Below, one piece after another: positions 21,651-48,534 of a DNA stretch of 64,000 nt (within the stretch, counting starts at the first letter, position 1; every line of letters begins with the position of its first letter). Under the pieces are notes generated by a model. It did not search any database, was not told the origin of the DNA, and was given only the letters and a program-made list of their open reading frames with translations. Origin of the DNA: an uncultured bacterium (GTDB lineage: Bacteria; Omnitrophota; Omnitrophia; Omnitrophales; Abzuiibacteriaceae); NCBI GenBank assembly GCA_964387845.1, contig CAYLXA010000006.1:96001-160000 (forward strand), given 5' to 3'. The translations under genes and the position numbers were made by a program.

Positions 21651-22241
21651 ATGAACGATACTCCTAATAATAATCCATCACAGCCGAAAGCCTCAGACAG
21701 AAGGTCCGTCCGCAACATCATCATTCACAAGCCGATGCAGCAGCAGTTTACGCTCATCACGATTGCGATCATGATGTTCTCGGCGTGCGGTGTGAGTTTC
21801 GTTATCCATTCGACACTTCATGAAACGATCGCGGACAGTGTGGGAAGGATCGGCGGAATCGGCGCATATACGATCCTTTCGGATGTCAGTTATGATTTGA
21901 TCGTCCGCGTTGTTCTTGTTTTCTTTGCAACGATTATTGCAGTCGGGCTTTTCGGCATATTTTTCCTGCACCGGGTTGCGGGGCCGGCGTACCGGTTCCA
22001 TCAATTGTTTAAAAGCCTGAGCCGCGATCAAATTCCGTCGGATGTCACGCTGCGCGAGAAAGATTTCTTCAAGGAAATCGCGGTTGAATTGAACATGGTT
22101 TTTAAGTCGCTCCGGAAGCGCCAGCAGGCGATTGAACAGGTCGAAACCATCATCTCATCCATGTCCTCAGCGCAGCTGCCGCCCGAGACCAAGCAAAAAG
22201 TGGAACAGCTTCGTTCTATTCTCCAAGAGTTAAAGAAGTAG
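21651..22241 (+). CDS. small membrane protein with two TM helices, a HAMP-like linker and a C-terminal coiled coil; hypothetical
   Basis: 196-aa ORF 44 nt after the giant gene. Hydrophobic helices FTLITIAIMMFSACGVSFVI and LIVRVVLVFFATIIAVGLFGIFFL, then HRVAGPAYRFHQLF and a charged helical tail. The antisense ORF 21693-22031 is rejected. Confidence 0.6.
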   Translation: MNDTPNNNPSQPKASDRRSVRNIIIHKPMQQQFTLITIAIMMFSACGVSFVIHSTLHETIADSVGRIGGIGAYTILSDVSYDLIVRVVLVFFATIIAVGLFGIFFLHRVAGPAYRFHQLFKSLSRDQIPSDVTLREKDFFKEIAVELNMVFKSLRKRQQAIEQVETIISSMSSAQLPPETKQKVEQLRSILQELKK

Positions 22242-22277
22242 AATCGCCGGCTTTACCTCCTAAAATGCCTTATTGCC

Positions 22278-22305
22278 TTGACAATATATAGAAGCTGAGT
22301 ATAAT
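22278..22305 (+). promoter_or_regulatory. sigma70-type promoter: TTGACA (22278-22283), 16-nt spacer, TATAAT (22300-22305)
   Basis: Perfect consensus -35 and -10 hexamers with a 16-nt spacer, lying 77 nt upstream of the nusA ATG. Confidence 0.7.
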
Positions 22306-22310
22306 TACTT

Positions 22311-22359
22311 CACTTTTTGTGGTGACAAAAGTGGGCCCAATGCCCACTTTTTTTATTTT
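22311..22359 (+). terminator. leader attenuator: antiterminator-like hairpin CACTTTT/AAAAGTG (22311-22333) overlapping an intrinsic terminator-like hairpin (AAAA)GTGGGC-CCAAT-GCCCAC(TTTT) with a 7-T run (22327-22359)
   Basis: Two mutually exclusive inverted repeats share AAAAGTG. The second is a GC-rich 6-10 bp stem with a 5-nt loop, followed by TTTTTTTATTTT, immediately upstream of the nusA RBS. Confidence 0.55.
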
Positions 22360-22381
22360 GAAGGAGAATTTAGGTGTCAAA

Positions 22382-23602
22382 ATGGCACAAGGCCTATTGA
22401 GTATTTTAGAAGCAATCGAGAAAGAAAAGGGAATTCAGCGCGAAGTCCTCTTGGAGGCAATCCGCTCGGCCCTTATTTCCGCATGCCGTAAAACCTTCGC
22501 CAATCCGGAAGGTGTGGATGTCCAGATTGATGTGAATACGGGCGCTATCCACGTACTGGAAAACGGGAAGGAAGTTTTTAACGCCGATTTCGGCCGTATT
22601 GCCGCACAGACCGCTAAGCAAGTCATCATGCAGAAAATCCGTGAAGCGGAGCGCGAAACTATCTTAGGCGAATTTACCAAAAAGGCCGGTGATATCGTAA
22701 CCGGGCACGTTCATCGCGTGGAGGCACGTGCGATCCTGGTAGATCTCGGAAAAGCGGAAGGGATTTTGCCGGCTCGCGAGCAATCCGCCAACGACGATTA
22801 CCGCCAAGGCGATGTAATTCGTGCGTATGTTGTCGAGGTGAAAAAGACAACGCGCGGCCCCGAAATTATTCTGTCGCGCGCACATGAAAATTTGGTCAAG
22901 AAAATGTTTGAGATCGAAGTCCCCGAAATTCATGACGGCATTGTTGAAATCAAGGGCGTATCACGCGAAGCCGGTTCGCGTACTAAAATCGCCGTGATTT
23001 CGCACGATGAAAAAATCGATTCCGTCGGTTCCTGTGTCGGCATGCGCGGCCAGCGCGTTAAAAATATTGTTCGCGAAATCGGCGGCGAAAAAGTCGATAT
23101 CATCCGCTGGAATGAAGATCCCGATATTTTTATACGGAATGCTTTAGGCCTTCCTGAAAACTCTGAAGTGAAACTCAACAAGAAAGAACTTGCCGCCGAA
23201 ATTTTGGTAAGCGATGATCAGCTGTCGATTGTGATCGGCAAGAAAGGCCAGAACGTTCGCTTAGCGTCAAAATTAACCGGTTGGCGGCTTGAAATCCGTC
23301 CGATGAGCCAACGTGTTCCGATTGAGTCGCTTGACGGCGTGGGTAAAAAAACGGCGGAACTTTTGAAAGGCGCGGGTATTAACTCTATCAAGGACTTGCT
23401 GAAAACGAGCGCCGAAGAACTCGTGAAGATCGAAGGGATCGGCCAAAAGACGGCCGAAAAAGTCATTGCCGCGGCGCATCAAGCGATCTTTCAAGGTAAG
23501 CCCCAGGAAGCAGCAGCGCCAAGCGAGGCTGAGGCCAAAGAAACAGGAGCAGAAAGCCGGCAAGAAAACGAGGCTGAAAACCAGGAAAGTAAAGACAAAT
23601 GA
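22382..23602 (+). CDS. nusA: transcription termination/antitermination factor NusA
   Basis: MAQGLLSILEAIEKEKGIQREVLLEAIRSAL matches the NusA N-terminus, followed by S1, KH and a C-terminal acidic repeat region. Start taken at ATG 22382 (AGGTG RBS 5 nt upstream) rather than the track's GTG 22319, which would read through the leader terminator. Overlaps infB by ATGA. Confidence 0.93.
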   Translation: MAQGLLSILEAIEKEKGIQREVLLEAIRSALISACRKTFANPEGVDVQIDVNTGAIHVLENGKEVFNADFGRIAAQTAKQVIMQKIREAERETILGEFTKKAGDIVTGHVHRVEARAILVDLGKAEGILPAREQSANDDYRQGDVIRAYVVEVKKTTRGPEIILSRAHENLVKKMFEIEVPEIHDGIVEIKGVSREAGSRTKIAVISHDEKIDSVGSCVGMRGQRVKNIVREIGGEKVDIIRWNEDPDIFIRNALGLPENSEVKLNKKELAAEILVSDDQLSIVIGKKGQNVRLASKLTGWRLEIRPMSQRVPIESLDGVGKKTAELLKGAGINSIKDLLKTSAEELVKIEGIGQKTAEKVIAAAHQAIFQGKPQEAAAPSEAEAKETGAESRQENEAENQESKDK

Positions 23603-25899
23603 AAGTTAACGAACTCGCCAAAGAGCTTGGCGTCTCAAGCAAAGAACTTCTCGAAGTCTTGAAGGAGAAGGATTCTAAACTTAAGAATCAGTTTACCGAG
23701 CTTGATAAAAATCAAATCGCTTACGCCAAGAAACATGTAAAACCTTCCGCAAAAACGAAGAAAGAAACGAAGGTCGCCGTAGCTCAAAAAGAAAAAATCA
23801 GTGCGGCGCTCAAAAAATTATCCGAAAAAGCCGCAAAAAAAGAAGCAAAAGAAAAGGAAGTCAAGGCCGCTGCCAAAGCAAAAACAGTGGAGGTTAAGAA
23901 GCCCGTTGCGCCAAAGCCCGTTGCGCCGAAAATTGAAAAGCCGGCTGTGCCCGCAAAGCCGGCTCCTGAAATTAAAAGAGCACCTGCGAAATCAGTGCCT
24001 TTGACAAGTTCGCCGGTAGCCGCAAAACCGTTTGTTGCACCAAAAGCCCATCCAGAAGTTAAAAAGCAAGAAAGGCCGGTTTTTGTACCTAAATCAGCGC
24101 CTGTTGTCCAAACACCTCCTTCTCCGCCACCGGTTCAGGAAAAGAAGCCGATTAAGCTTGATATTCCGATTACGGTTGGTAACTTGGCGAATGCGTTTAG
24201 CATGACGCCTGCCGAATTAATCAAAGCGCTCATCAGCATTGGTGTATTTGCGAATATTAACCAGCTTTTAAATGATGAGATTGTCTTTAAAGTTGCAGCG
24301 GAACTCGAAATCAAAGTCGAAAAAAATGAAGCCGTTTCCGAAAAAATTTACAGCGCGAAAAAAGAAGATCCTAAGAAATTAAAGTTCCGCGCTCCCGTGG
24401 TCACGATGATGGGCCATGTCGATCACGGAAAGACATCGCTCCTGGATGCGATTCGCAAAACACATGTGGCGGCAGGCGAGGCCGGCTACATCACACAACA
24501 CATCGGTGCTTACATGGTCGAGCTTCCGGGAAAAGGTTATGTCACATTTCTCGATACCCCTGGCCATGAGGCGTTTACTGCCATCCGTGCCCGCGGAGCA
24601 CACGTGACGGATATGGTTGTTCTTGTGGTGGCGGCCGATGACGGCATCATGCCGCAAACGCGCGAAGCGATTGATCACGCGCGCGCCGCTGAATGCCCAA
24701 TCATTGTCGCAATTAATAAATCCGATTTGCCGGCTGCCAATCCGCAACGCGTGATGACACAGCTGCAAAAAATCGAACTCGTTCCCGAGGAATGGGGCGG
24801 TAAGACAATTTGCGTGAAGGTTTCTGCAAAAACCGGTGATGGAATTGATGAACTGCTCGAGATGCTGCTTTTACAGGCGGAAGTTATGGAACTCAGAGCC
24901 AATCCTGATTGCGAAGCGCAGGGGACGGTTCTTGAGGCCAAGCTAACAAAAGGCCAGGGAGCGGTTTCGACCATTCTTGTTCAGCGCGGCACGCTGCATG
25001 TGGGTGACGTGGTTGTGGCGGGCCCTTATTTCGGCCGCGTGCGTGCGATGAAAAACGATCGCGGTAAAAATGTGAAAGAAGCTCGGCCCTCCCATGCCGT
25101 TGAAGTGCTCGGCCTTTCCGGTGTTCCGGATGCCGGAGAGCTTTTCGCGGTGGTGGGTGATGAAAAAATGGCGCGTACGATTGCAGAAAAGCGCGAGCTT
25201 GAACTCCGCGAAAGAAGTATGCAGGGCATTCATTCGAAACACATGTCTCTGCAAGAGCTTTACAGCAAGATTAAAGAAGGCCAGAAGGAGCTCCGGCTCA
25301 TCATTAAGGCCGATACCCAAGGTTCTATCGAAGCGCTTTCGCAGATGCTTGAAAAATCGTTTTCAGATAAAATCAGTGTTCGCATTATTCATACCGGGGT
25401 CGGCGGTCTTAACGAATCAGACGTCATGCTCGCAGTCGCAAGCGATGCCATTCTGATCGGTTTTCATGTGAAATCCGAAACGCGCGCACAGGAGATCATC
25501 GAAAAAGAAGGGATTGATGCCCGCTTTTACAGCATTATTTATGAAGTCGTGCAGGATGTCCAAAAAGCGCTCGAAGGGTTGCTGGAGCCGACCCTGAAGG
25601 AAGTGGTCGAAGGAAGGTTTGAAATTCGTAAGATTTTTAAATCATCGAAAGTCGGCACAATCGGCGGCGGTACGGTGATTAAAGGCAAAATCAGCCGCAA
25701 CAATCCCGTTCGCGTGATCCGCGATAATATTGTCGTATTTGAAGGAAAGCTGGCGTCATTAAAACGGTTTCAGGATGATGCGCGCGAAGTTCAGGAAGGC
25801 TTTGAATGCGGTGTTGCCGTACAGGGTTTTGACGGGATTCAGGAAAAAGACATTGTGGAGTCCTACCGCGTTGATAAAATCGCGACGAAACTCGTTTAA
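23599..25899 (+). CDS. infB: translation initiation factor IF-2
   Basis: 766 aa. Lys/Ala/Pro-rich N-terminal region, then the GTPase G-domain ([24 protein letters not shown]) and the conserved C-terminal domains. Confidence 0.95.
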
Positions 25900-25904
25900 A
25901 TCAA

Positions 25905-26186
25905 ATGATTTTGGGAACGCTCCAGCTTGAACTTTATTTCCCGGATCCTCAATCTTTGAAAGAAAAACGCCACATTTTAAAAAGCGTTCTCACACGGCTG
26001 AAGCAGCGGTTCAATGTTTCAGTGGCCGAGCTGGATAATATGGGCAAATGGCAGTCATCGATTATCGGTGTTGCCTATATCGGAAGTAACCGGAACGATG
26101 TGGACCGCGGTTTGAATTCGGTGCTCGAGTTTTTTGACGCAGAAGATAAGCTCGAAGTGGTCAGGCAAATGAAGGAGTTATTGTAA
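25905..26186 (+). CDS. DUF503 family protein (YlxP-like)
   Basis: 93-aa ORF between infB and rbfA, the conserved position of the ylxP/DUF503 gene. MILGTLQLELYFPD...VAYIGSN is typical of that family. Confidence 0.7.
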   Translation: MILGTLQLELYFPDPQSLKEKRHILKSVLTRLKQRFNVSVAELDNMGKWQSSIIGVAYIGSNRNDVDRGLNSVLEFFDAEDKLEVVRQMKELL

Positions 26187-26554
26187 TGCAGGGAAAAAGA
26201 GCAGATAAAGTCGCAGAACTTGTGAGAATGGAGCTGAGCTCAACGGTTTTGACACGCCTCAAGGATCCGCGTGTCGGATTTATCACGATTACGCGTGTCG
26301 AGATGAGTAATGACCTGCAAATCGCAAAAGTTTTTTACAGTGTTTTAGGAGACCGCGAGAAAAAGCGTGCCACCGGCGAAGCGCTCGAGCATGCGCGCGG
26401 ATTTTTACAGCGCGACGTGGGTGATGTTTTGAAGCTCCGCTACACGCCGCATTTACAGTTTCATCTCGATGAATCCGCCGACAATTCCGAAGAAGTTGAA
26501 AATATCATTAAAAAAATACATACGAATACTGGAAAAAATCCGGGTCAATTATGA
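26186..26554 (+). CDS. rbfA: ribosome-binding factor A
   Basis: 122 aa. RADKVAELVRMELS...DPRVGFITITRVEMSNDLQIAKVFYSV is a typical RbfA sequence. Overlaps the neighbouring genes by 1 and 4 nt. Confidence 0.92.
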   Translation: MQGKRADKVAELVRMELSSTVLTRLKDPRVGFITITRVEMSNDLQIAKVFYSVLGDREKKRATGEALEHARGFLQRDVGDVLKLRYTPHLQFHLDESADNSEEVENIIKKIHTNTGKNPGQL

Positions 26555-27555
26555 CAACGATCAAAACAAAGCAAAATAAGGTCGATCACCAGATTGCCGA
26601 ATTCTGCAAAGGGCTTGAGTCTAAAAGCCACTTTATATTAGCGTCGCATGTGAACCCGGAAGGCGATGCGGTGGCGTGTCTTTTGGCGATGGAATCGCTT
26701 TTGAAACGCCTGGGGAAAAAGACCATTATCGTTTGCGAAGACCCGTTTCCTGCGAGACTCCGGTGCCTGGACTCCAAACATTGGAATCAAGTGAAAGACG
26801 TGAAGCTTGATCCGAATCAGTACGATGCGCTGGTAGTGGCCGATTGCCCGACGCTGGAGCGCGTCGGAACAACACGTCGATTCGTCAACGAAAAAACAAC
26901 GATTTTCAATATTGATCACCACGTCACGAATTTACGGTTTGGGACTTATAATTTTGTGCAGCCCAAAGCCTCTGCATGCGGCGAAGTTGTGTATGAGTTC
27001 TTTAAATACTTTAAACTTCCGCTGACCAAAGAAGAAGCGGCCGCGCTCTACGTTTCGATTTCGACGGACACCGGTTCATTCAAATACAGCAACACCACCG
27101 TCGGTTCTCATTTAATTGCGGCGGAGCTAATTAAAACCGGCATTGATATCGAAGCGATCAACGAAGATCTTTATGCGACCTATTCGCTCAATCAAATGAA
27201 GCTTTACAGCCTCTTGATGGGACGTGTCCGCAACGAATTTAACGGTCAAGTGGCTTGGGTGGGAATGCGCCGTCACGATCTTCACAGTTCCGGCGCGACG
27301 TATGAAGATGCCGAAGGTTTTATCGATTTTTTGAAGTACATGCAGGAAGTGCAATTTGCGTTTTTTCTTCTTGAAACCGAAACGCCGAATCAAATCCGCG
27401 TTTGCCTGCGCGCCAAAGGCCATCATGATGTCAGTAAAATCGCGATCCATTTTGGCGGCGGCGGACACTCCAAAGCGGCTGGCTGTATTATTGAAGGTAC
27501 GCTCCAGAAAGCGGCGGATTTGCTGCTCGCTGAAATCCGGAAAGAATTGAAATAA
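26551..27555 (+). CDS. nrnA: DHH-family phosphoesterase, NrnA-like (oligoribonuclease / pAp phosphatase)
   Basis: 334 aa. DHH motifs (HVNPEGDAVAC, VVADCPT, NIDHH) and a DHHA1 GGGH motif (FGGGGHSKAAG). Confidence 0.8.
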   Translation: MTTIKTKQNKVDHQIAEFCKGLESKSHFILASHVNPEGDAVACLLAMESLLKRLGKKTIIVCEDPFPARLRCLDSKHWNQVKDVKLDPNQYDALVVADCPTLERVGTTRRFVNEKTTIFNIDHHVTNLRFGTYNFVQPKASACGEVVYEFFKYFKLPLTKEEAAALYVSISTDTGSFKYSNTTVGSHLIAAELIKTGIDIEAINEDLYATYSLNQMKLYSLLMGRVRNEFNGQVAWVGMRRHDLHSSGATYEDAEGFIDFLKYMQEVQFAFFLLETETPNQIRVCLRAKGHHDVSKIAIHFGGGGHSKAAGCIIEGTLQKAADLLLAEIRKELK

Positions 27556-47445: not shown

Positions 47446-48534
47446 GTGTTTTATTATTTTCTTTATCCGCTGAGTGATCATTCAATTTTGTTTAACGTTT
47501 TTAAATACATCACATTCCGCTCGGTCGGGGCGAGCGTGACCGCCTTTTTGTTCTGCATTTTTATGGCACCGGCCGTTATTGATTGGCTGAGCCGTTTGTG
47601 CGTGGTCAATTCCACAAAGCGCGAACATGCGCAATCGATTCATAAATTCTATGAGCATAAAGGCAAAGTGCCGACAATGGGCGGCGTTCTGATCGTCGGC
47701 AGCATTCTTCTTTCGTGCCTTTTGTGGGGCAATTTCGGAAACGCGTTTTTTAATTTATCGCTGATTGTCTTGATTTTGTTTGCCGCTGTCGGTTTTTTGG
47801 ATGATTACATTAAATTGAAATCTAAAAGCTCAAGAGGCCTAAGCGCGCGCGTCAAATTGGCGGGACAATTGGGCGCTGGTTTACTGCTCGCAGTTTATCT
47901 TTTTTGGGATCCTGCAGTGGATACTAAATTATTTATTCCGTTTTTCAAGACTGCCACCGTGATGCTGGGCTGGCTTTATATTCCGTTTGTGGTGCTCGTG
48001 CTGGTCGGTACATCCAACGCCCTTAATTTAACCGATGGGCTTGACGGGCTTGCGATCGGCTGCTTCACCATCGCAGCTGGTGTTTTTGGGCTTATTTGCT
48101 ATATCGTGGGCCGTATCGACTATGCCACTTATTTAGAAGTCCGCTATATTGCCCAAGCAGCGGAACTGTCCATATTTTGCGCGGCCCTTGTCGGCGCGGC
48201 CCTTGGTTTTCTTTGGTATAATTCCTATCCTGCGAGTATCATGATGGGCGACACAGGCTCTCTTGCACTTGGCGGCGCGTTGGGCACGATTGCCATTTTA
48301 GTCAAAAAGGAAGCTATTTTAATCGTCGTCGGCGGCGTTTTTGTGTGGGAAGCGCTTTCTGTTATTTTGCAGGTGTTTTGCTATAAAAATTTTAAAAAGC
48401 GGATATTTTTAATGTCGCCCTTTCATCATCACCTACAACTGAAAGGCTGGCCCGAATCCAAAGTGACGATCCGGCTGTGGATTGTCGCGTTTATTTTGGC
48501 GCTTCTCGGACTCAGCATGCTGAAATTGAGATGA
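47446..48534 (+). CDS. mraY: phospho-N-acetylmuramoyl-pentapeptide transferase
   Basis: 362 aa polytopic protein. NLTDGLDGLA and MGDTGSLALG MraY motifs. Confidence 0.93.
   Translation: MFYYFLYPLSDHSILFNVFKYITFRSVGASVTAFLFCIFMAPAVIDWLSRLCVVNSTKREHAQSIHKFYEHKGKVPTMGGVLIVGSILLSCLLWGNFGNAFFNLSLIVLILFAAVGFLDDYIKLKSKSSRGLSARVKLAGQLGAGLLLAVYLFWDPAVDTKLFIPFFKTATVMLGWLYIPFVVLVLVGTSNALNLTDGLDGLAIGCFTIAAGVFGLICYIVGRIDYATYLEVRYIAQAAELSIFCAALVGAALGFLWYNSYPASIMMGDTGSLALGGALGTIAILVKKEAILIVVGGVFVWEALSVILQVFCYKNFKKRIFLMSPFHHHLQLKGWPESKVTIRLWIVAFILALLGLSMLKLR

Follow-up and report, generated by a model that had tools for sequence, protein, structure and literature searches.

How an uncultured bacterium sets the expression of its nusA operon is the question raised by a short leader within the stretch of DNA of 64,000 nucleotides analysed here (the window), which is assigned to Candidatus Omnitrophota by NusA homology. 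In a preliminary description, this leader had been read as a consensus sigma-70 promoter followed by mutually exclusive antiterminator and terminator hairpins, an arrangement held to fit NusA-dependent autoregulation, and it had been missed that the stem AGUGGGC/GCCCAC is the signature of an element already known across phyla. As set out below, the window leader is an instance of this known cross-phylum attenuator, the rimP-leader, and is neither a new kind of element nor a two-structure switch. For annotation, the analysis is of value in that it locates where the nusA-infB-rbfA operon begins and where it is controlled in the genome of an uncultured Omnitrophota bacterium.

The nusA operon and its neighbours

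The gene nusA (22382-23602, + strand) encodes a protein of 406 aa in which NusA_N, S1, KH and HhH domains were recognized through Pfam and homologues. Its start was placed at the ATG 22382, which fits the NusA homologues and is in frame, unlike the GTG at 22374. The Shine-Dalgarno region, as read from the sequence, is constituted by AGGAG (22362-22366, +) and AGGUG (22372-22376, +), the latter lying 5 nt ahead of the ATG. According to the list of open reading frames and Pfam, nusA is followed on the same strand by infB (23599-25899), which encodes IF2 with 766 aa and overlaps the nusA stop codon, by a DUF503 gene (25905-26186), by rbfA (26186-26554) and by the gene of a DHH/DHHA1 protein (26551-27555). 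No rimP was found in the 64 kb by tblastn with eight RimP sequences, no match being better than E = 0.6.

Upstream of the leader stands an open reading frame of 196 aa (21651-22241, +; open-reading-frame list and Pfam), which possesses two hydrophobic stretches and has no Pfam match, and this is preceded by a giant open reading frame of 7194 aa (22-21606, +), either half of which is without a Pfam family at E <= 1e-3.

Promoter and terminator of the leader

A -35 hexamer TTGACA (22278-22283, +), identified by reading the sequence and by a promoter scan of the genome window, is separated by a spacer of 16 nt from a -10 hexamer TATAAT without TG extension (22300-22305, +). Together they form the single 12/12 sigma-70 match in the whole 64 kb (TTGACA-16 nt-TATAAT, 22278-22305), and dinucleotide shuffles of the window lead to an expectation of 0.01 perfect matches, any match being encountered in 1 of 100 shuffles. 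The perfect consensus reported in the preliminary description is therefore borne out, and it is unique in the window. Transcription is predicted to start at A22312 (+), 7 nt past the -10 box, on the basis of the sequence together with clade conservation, since an A at +7 from the -10 box followed by CAWUUU is kept in a nine-member clade alignment. To judge by its sequence, the nusA promoter would most likely be near-maximal and fire constitutively. As a separate observation, the first transcribed bases A-C-A/U-W-U-U-U (22312-22318, and their equivalents in L081 and L161-L168) are conserved in the nine-member clade, while the remaining leader is not.

Some 15-19 nt of leader, with a U-rich stretch between the -10 box and the hairpin, precede the terminator hairpin AAAAGUGGGC-CCAAU-GCCCACUUUU (22327-22351, +), which was recognized by fold energy, by a covariance-model match and by a regular expression. 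The hairpin is composed of an A-run, the 5' arm GUGGGC (22331-22336), the loop CCAAU (22337-22341), the 3' arm GCCCAC (22342-22347) and the first four U, all on the + strand. The remainder of the U-run past the hairpin is UUUAUUUU, which ends at 22359; the entire U-tract UUUUUUUAUUUU, read from the sequence, spans 22348-22359 (+), and transcript 3' ends are predicted at about 22352-22359. With a stem of 10 bp and an uninterrupted U7 run, the hairpin has a fold energy of -13.7 kcal/mol (z = -4.07), a stability that was not reached in any of 200 shuffles; this upholds the earlier claim of a U-tract terminator in front of nusA. Moreover, the pair probability of the terminator core in the equilibrium fold of the full leader is 0.99999, the hairpin is the top-ranked terminator-like site of a terminator scan over 14-32 kb, and the regular expression AGTGGG..CCCACT has one match in the window versus none in shuffles. 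The end of the U-tract and the nusA start codon are 22 nt apart on the same (+) strand.

Compact terminators made up of a hairpin and a U-run are rare in the 64 kb, most candidates being located inside coding sequence; the cleanest such site is the nusA leader, and the one at 48463-48497 (+) is possibly another real terminator.

A close clade of nine further loci, L081 and L161-L169, was collected by means of the NusA protein at 71-91% identity, the protein of L164 being identical to that of L163. The promoters of this clade are constructed as cTTGACA, 17 nt and TATAAT or a one-off variant of it, with cTTGACA present in all close relatives; the -10 box is the same as that of the window in L081 and L161, and TATAAT occurs in seven of the nine other clade members. 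The leaders run for 19-31 nt before a hairpin AGUGGGC...GCCC(A/G)C, which is followed by a run of U6-U9, and nusA lies immediately downstream without rimP throughout the clade. The succession of TTGACA-N17-TATAAT, a leader of 19-31 nt, the hairpin core and a run of U6-9 was seen in each of twelve clade relatives retrieved with the NusA protein only. In L081, whose NusA is 89% identical, the promoter is one spacer base off that of the window, the stems are identical and the loop carries one change. Conservation in relatives had been named beforehand as a check on the structures, and for the terminator it was confirmed, the core and the U-run being kept upstream of nusA in all clade relatives found.

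In several clade members, the leader is likewise preceded by a giant gene and by one of about 195 aa that has no Pfam match; in others the upstream gene is a different one, with a divergent gene in L163 and a UDP-glucose dehydrogenase fusion in L168. Since the upstream genes differ among relatives, the leader goes with nusA and not with the preceding genes. Counterparts of the giant gene upstream of the nusA leader measure 7101 aa in L166 and 4495 aa in L167, and an open reading frame of 191-209 aa without Pfam matches stands directly before the leader in L162, L163 and L166-L169.

Identity of the leader element

In 2010, Naville and Gautheret (Genome Biol 11:R97, PMC2965389) described the rimP-leader as the most ubiquitous transcription attenuator, and rimP was ranked first among the genes with a premature terminator ahead of them. 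A GGGc...gCCC terminator was found to be specific to the rimP-nusA-infB leaders, no antiterminator was seen, and NusA was proposed as the most probable factor, with RimP as the alternative (PMC2965389). Literature searches for later work on the GGGC/GCCC leader motif turned up nothing beyond 2010. In Rfam, only the gammaproteobacterial two-hairpin form, RF01770, is covered (PMC5955585), which thus represents a single form of a far wider leader.

As in the rimP-leader (PMC2965389), a short terminator lies in the 5' UTR ahead of nusA-infB, on the coding strand; its 5' arm is rich in G and its 3' arm in C (GGGc...gCCC there, GUGGGC...GCCCAC here), and a U-stretch follows. The distance to the start codon, 22 nt here, falls in the reported range of 4-130 nt, the motif is specific to the leader, with one match to the covariance model R1 in the window, and there is no conserved antiterminator or sensor structure. 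The differences are that the window lacks rimP, so that the leader stands directly before nusA, that Omnitrophota were not among the genomes of 2010, and that the stem and U7 run of the window are stronger than the 'weak regulatory terminators' of PMC2965389. What is new here is accordingly the phylum Omnitrophota and the arrangement without rimP, which were not described in PMC2965389.

The covariance model R1 was built from 58 AGTGGG...CCCACT sites. In the window it recognizes a single site (22323-22359, 41.7 bits), accompanied by its palindromic shadow on the opposite strand, and the next best match scores 11.8 bits. When R1 was applied to the metY-rimP-nusA locus of E. coli, the best match, at 16.6 bits, was the t2 hairpin CUGGGCUUUAGGCCC-U7. 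The second hairpin of RF01770, CUGGGCU-UUA-GGCCC with U7, is the same GGGC/GCCC kind of terminator, whereas its 102-nt two-hairpin architecture includes an upstream CCCCG...CGGGG terminator, and CUGGG in E. coli stands in place of GUGGG here. RF01770 scored 102 bits on the metY-rimP spacer of E. coli as a positive control; in the window it gave no match at the gathering score (47 bits), with nothing at E <= 10 in 22100-22500. Rfam as a whole, at the gathering score, yielded nothing meaningful in the entire window or in 17 related loci, and the same was true of 22100-22500 when it was searched at E <= 10. The E. coli operon also begins with a tRNA gene (metY), whereas no tRNA gene was found in the window.

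The nusA (ylxS/rimP) leader of B. subtilis is similar in that a terminator stands ahead of the NusA-encoding operon and no alternative structure is needed, and it differs in its length of about 180 nt and its position before rimP (PMC2965389), as compared with the 10-bp stem and uninterrupted U7 run of the window. With the classical attenuators and riboswitches (trp, his, T-box), the window leader has in common that a promoter-proximal intrinsic terminator controls the downstream genes; unlike them, it lacks a conserved alternative helix, a leader peptide and any domain for binding a ligand or a tRNA, and only about 20 nt come before its hairpin. Its short and clean form, with a leader of 45 nt, no second terminator and no tRNA gene, would make it a convenient minimal substrate for assays of NusA-dependent termination.

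Distribution among NusA loci

Upstream of nusA, AGTGGG...CCCACT was found in 33 of the first 80 public NusA loci, which belong to several phyla, once per locus and on the coding strand. The survey was then based on 160 loci (974 kb, many phyla) picked purely by NusA homology and not by the motif, whereas the seeds of R1 had been chosen by the motif, and plus-strand matches scoring 21 bits or more were counted. Such matches were obtained in 95 of the 160 loci, and all 95 are located on the nusA strand upstream of nusA. In 61 of these the match lies 470-1130 nt upstream of nusA with rimP between the two, and all 61 loci contain a RimP-like reading frame; in the other 34 it lies 10-160 nt upstream with no rimP between, which is the layout of the window. 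Eight further relatives beyond the motif-bearing loci also show the rimP-less layout. Most loci without an R1 match contain near variants at the same place, namely AGAGUGGCC...GGCCGCUCU, GAGAGUGGUGA...CCACUCUC and AAAGCGGGC...GCCCGCUUU. The survey shows that the GGGC/GCCC leader ranges over Clostridia, Desulfobacterota, Acidobacteriota, the PVC group and Omnitrophota, and the element follows nusA even when rimP is gone.

Several lineage-specific features were noticed in the surveyed loci. RimP-like tblastn matches lie between the hairpin and nusA in L094 (2285-2476, E = 4e-32) and L007 (2322-2384); these stretches may be decayed rimP genes, which would suggest loss in place, and the query reading frame of L003 included translated leader. 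In leaders of the Desulfobacterota type (L023-L047, L103-L123), an extra conserved block GGTTTGCGAAAATTT...GGCYGGWRACRGCTTTTTTGCA is situated about 50 nt 5' of the hairpin, before AGTGGGC; UUGCGAAAA can pair there with UUUUGCAA, which could be a lineage-specific additional structure. In the Kiritimatiellales/Pontiella loci (L030-L062, L100-L118), the leader stands directly before nusA without rimP, and the 3' arm CCCGC (with a G-U pair) together with the interrupted U-tract CUCUUUUGUUCUC gives a weaker-looking terminator than that of the window.

Covariation and constraint on the 5' arm

A set of 90 distinct leaders was used for the analysis of covariation. The core three G-C pairs are invariant in these 90 leaders, an invariance that is partly circular among R1 matches because R1 was seeded with motif-picked sequences, and the pair beneath is again G-C in all leaders but one (89 of 90). 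The U of GUGGG (U10) is likewise invariant, while its partner is A in 67 leaders and G in 23. On both sides of the core, covariation was observed: at 7-35 there are 48 leaders with A-U and 34 with G-C, at 14-28 there are 51 with C-G, 11 with A-U and 3 with U-A, and pairs 15-27 and 16-26 behave likewise. Over the 90 leaders, 94% of the cells are paired, versus 87% in shuffles and 32-62% with slid partners. The loop ranges in length from 4 to >14 nt, and its sequence is unconserved.

Taken as comparative sequence evidence, these counts show an RNA helix on the nusA strand, with an apparent constraint beyond pairing at the base of the helix, mostly in the 5' arm. That U10 is fixed while its partner may be A or G argues for sequence-specific recognition of the 5' arm. 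To the question of 2010 as to what reads the GGGC/GCCC motif, two small additions are thereby made, namely that the element tracks nusA and that the sequence of the 5' arm is constrained. Meanwhile, the idea that the three G-C pairs mimic the anticodon stem of initiator tRNA found no support, the loop being unconserved and 4 to >14 nt long.

Proposed regulatory mechanism

We consider it likely that a strong sigma-70 promoter is throttled by a rimP-leader-type terminator of the nusA-infB-DUF503-rbfA operon, the read-through of which is set by NusA feedback. RNA polymerase would start at about A22312 at the consensus promoter and, about 20 nt later, would transcribe the hairpin AAAAGUGGGC-CCAAU-GCCCACUUUU with its U7 run, whereupon a large share of the transcripts would end at about 22352-22359 as an RNA of 40-48 nt and the rest would continue into nusA and infB. 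The terminated share would rise with cellular NusA, which would act on the hairpin, probably through the conserved 5' arm AGUGGGC, and NusA, IF2 and RbfA would thereby be held at a set level by negative feedback. In addition, transcription reading through from the giant gene upstream would be kept out of the operon by the terminator.

Dependence on NusA and the feedback are probable by analogy with experiments in E. coli and B. subtilis. In E. coli, where rimP is preceded by the terminators t1/t2, NusA governs the expression of its own gene and of the whole operon, and the operon transcripts go up in mutants with reduced NusA-mediated termination (PMC6511841). [quoted passage not shown] The earlier suggestion that the leader terminator fits NusA autoregulation agrees with the accepted reading for this element family (PMC2965389, PMC6511841, PMC12288461).

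A terminator of 10 pairs with an uninterrupted U7 run looks strong, so that the one in the window is possibly independent of NusA. The NusA-dependent terminators of B. subtilis reportedly tend toward weak stems or interrupted U-tracts. Two cases then present themselves: modest read-through from a strong promoter is enough for the operon, or a protein modulates an efficient terminator via the conserved 5' arm. For the second case, it may be proposed tentatively, as a reading that we hold to be less probable than not, that the AGUGGGC arm is a sequence-specific 'NusA box', read on the nascent RNA by NusA through its S1/KH domains or by another product of the operon. With the same reserve, the concentration of the reader protein would then tune termination at an otherwise strong terminator. 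The 'NusA box' is favoured because the element stays with nusA after the loss of rimP and because the 5' U stays constant although its partner may be A or G. If true, it would provide a defined RNA target for NusA, a factor generally regarded as sequence-unspecific in termination.

It is possible that RimP, IF2 or another protein reads the AGUGGGC arm. In the fuller form of this alternative, the hairpin is the target of some other protein (RimP, IF2, RbfA, a ribosomal protein or a dedicated antiterminator), which sets the read-through, and NusA plays only a general role. Such a protein would account for a 5' arm that is fixed beyond the needs of pairing, U10 being invariant with A or G as partner, and for a strong stem and U7 run that look NusA-independent, and RimP is the alternative named in PMC2965389. 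The element persists, however, in the 34 surveyed loci and the eight further relatives that have no rimP in the operon, which makes RimP weaker as a cis-linked partner; moreover, no candidate protein is encoded beside the element, and in E. coli and B. subtilis it is NusA that the genetic evidence implicates. We therefore regard control by a different protein as unlikely.

The upstream hairpin and the question of an antiterminator

The preliminary description had further placed a 7-bp stem CACTTTT...AAAAGTG at the start of the transcript, the 3' arm of which would be shared with the terminator. This stem is present in the sequence (CACUUUU/AAAAGUG, 22311-22317 with 22327-22333), but its energy is no more than -2.8 kcal/mol and shrinks to -0.9 with A22312 as the first transcribed base. 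In the best register, a weak 5' hairpin UUUUUGU/ACAAAAG with the loop GGUG (22314-22331, +) was obtained by fold energy, in which 22314-22320 pair with 22325-22331; at -3.8 kcal/mol (z = -0.77), it is matched in stability by 42 of 200 shuffles, and the minimum-free-energy (MFE) fold of the full leader does not contain it. RNA folding, which had been suggested as a check, thus divided the two structures, the terminator being stable (z -4.07) and the upstream hairpin resembling shuffles (z -0.77).

Conservation gave a similar picture. No conserved upstream helix was returned by RNAalifold on the nine clade leaders, the consensus consisting of the terminator only, so that in this respect the conservation check went against the upstream hairpin. 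Counted on the clade alignment, the proposed helix is 66% paired, versus 59.5% in shuffles and 47-63% in slid controls. In a competition test, for which the RNA made before the 3' arm was folded in 12 relatives with shuffled leaders as the control, the 5' arm paired with the leader no more than in shuffles in 10 of the 12; the 90th percentile was exceeded only in L162 (L161, 11%; window, 74th percentile, in the wrong direction). In leaders of several phyla, among them those of the PVC type, the hairpin begins about 10-20 nt past the -10 box, so that an antiterminator would not fit in between. The 5' pairing is no more than chance expects in a U-rich leader beside an A-run, and the weak 5' hairpin may slightly delay the folding of the terminator or protect the 5' end.

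A classical attenuator switch, in which the 5' hairpin is an antiterminator competing with the terminator and a signal decides between them, is consequently improbable. It could appeal to the overlap of the 3' arm of the upstream hairpin with the A-run and the basal G-U(-G) of the terminator, and to the capacity of several clade members to pair their U-rich 5' end with the AAGUG base. The terminator state is nevertheless at least 4 kcal/mol better, and GGGC/GCCC forms even with the upstream hairpin forced; neither a sensor domain nor a leader peptide bearing a Shine-Dalgarno sequence is present, PVC-type leaders being too short for either, and PMC2965389 likewise saw no antiterminator. Fold energy, RNAalifold and pair counts all speak against the mutually exclusive switch of the preliminary description, which is given up here.

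Two candidates of smaller scope were rejected as well. A U-A to C-G change in L081, considered as an antiterminator compensation, depends on the register, is not kept in L161 and belongs to a helix whose counts are at control level. A leader peptide or an N-terminal extension would have to begin at GUG 22319, whose frame continues into nusA in the window as well as in L081; this GUG lacks a Shine-Dalgarno sequence, and a TAG closes the frame in L161, the closest relative.

Other explanations of the element

The hairpin could also be the ordinary 3' terminator of the upstream operon (the giant and 196-aa genes), in front of which the nusA promoter is merely packed, with no regulatory role. No second terminator-like site was detected between 22241 and 22327 in the terminator scan, and the leader terminator, as the sole such site past the upstream stop codon at 22241, must also end the transcripts of the upstream genes; the rarity of clean intrinsic terminators in the window would be in keeping with this function. 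As the whole explanation it is nonetheless quite unlikely, because the motif accompanies nusA or rimP-nusA whatever gene is upstream (L163, L168 and other phyla), the promoter is always upstream of the motif, the core sequence is conserved across phyla, unlike that of generic terminators, and no other site of the window fits R1.

Two further possibilities are, finally, highly improbable: that the terminated transcript of about 45 nt is a functional small RNA, and that a dimeric repressor recognizes the inverted repeat as its operator on the DNA. A small RNA would indeed be abundant where a strong promoter leads into a strong terminator, yet no Rfam small-RNA family was significant, and the loop and the 5' leader are unconserved, so that they offer no seed with which an RNA could act in trans. 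The DNA sequence is indeed an inverted repeat, yet the operator was rejected on account of the variable half-site spacing (4 to >14 nt), the covariation of the distal stem, the one-sided U-run and the GUGGG/CCCGC form of 23 of the 90 leaders, which keeps pairing as RNA (G-U) and, being asymmetric as DNA, breaks the palindrome.

Apart from the terminator, the MFE fold contains a helix in which AUUUUGA (22353-22359, the tail of the U-tract) pairs with UCAAAAU (22377-22383, reaching into the AUG), with the Shine-Dalgarno sequence in the enclosed loop, and this AUUUUGA/UCAAAAU helix could persist in L081 via G-U pairs.
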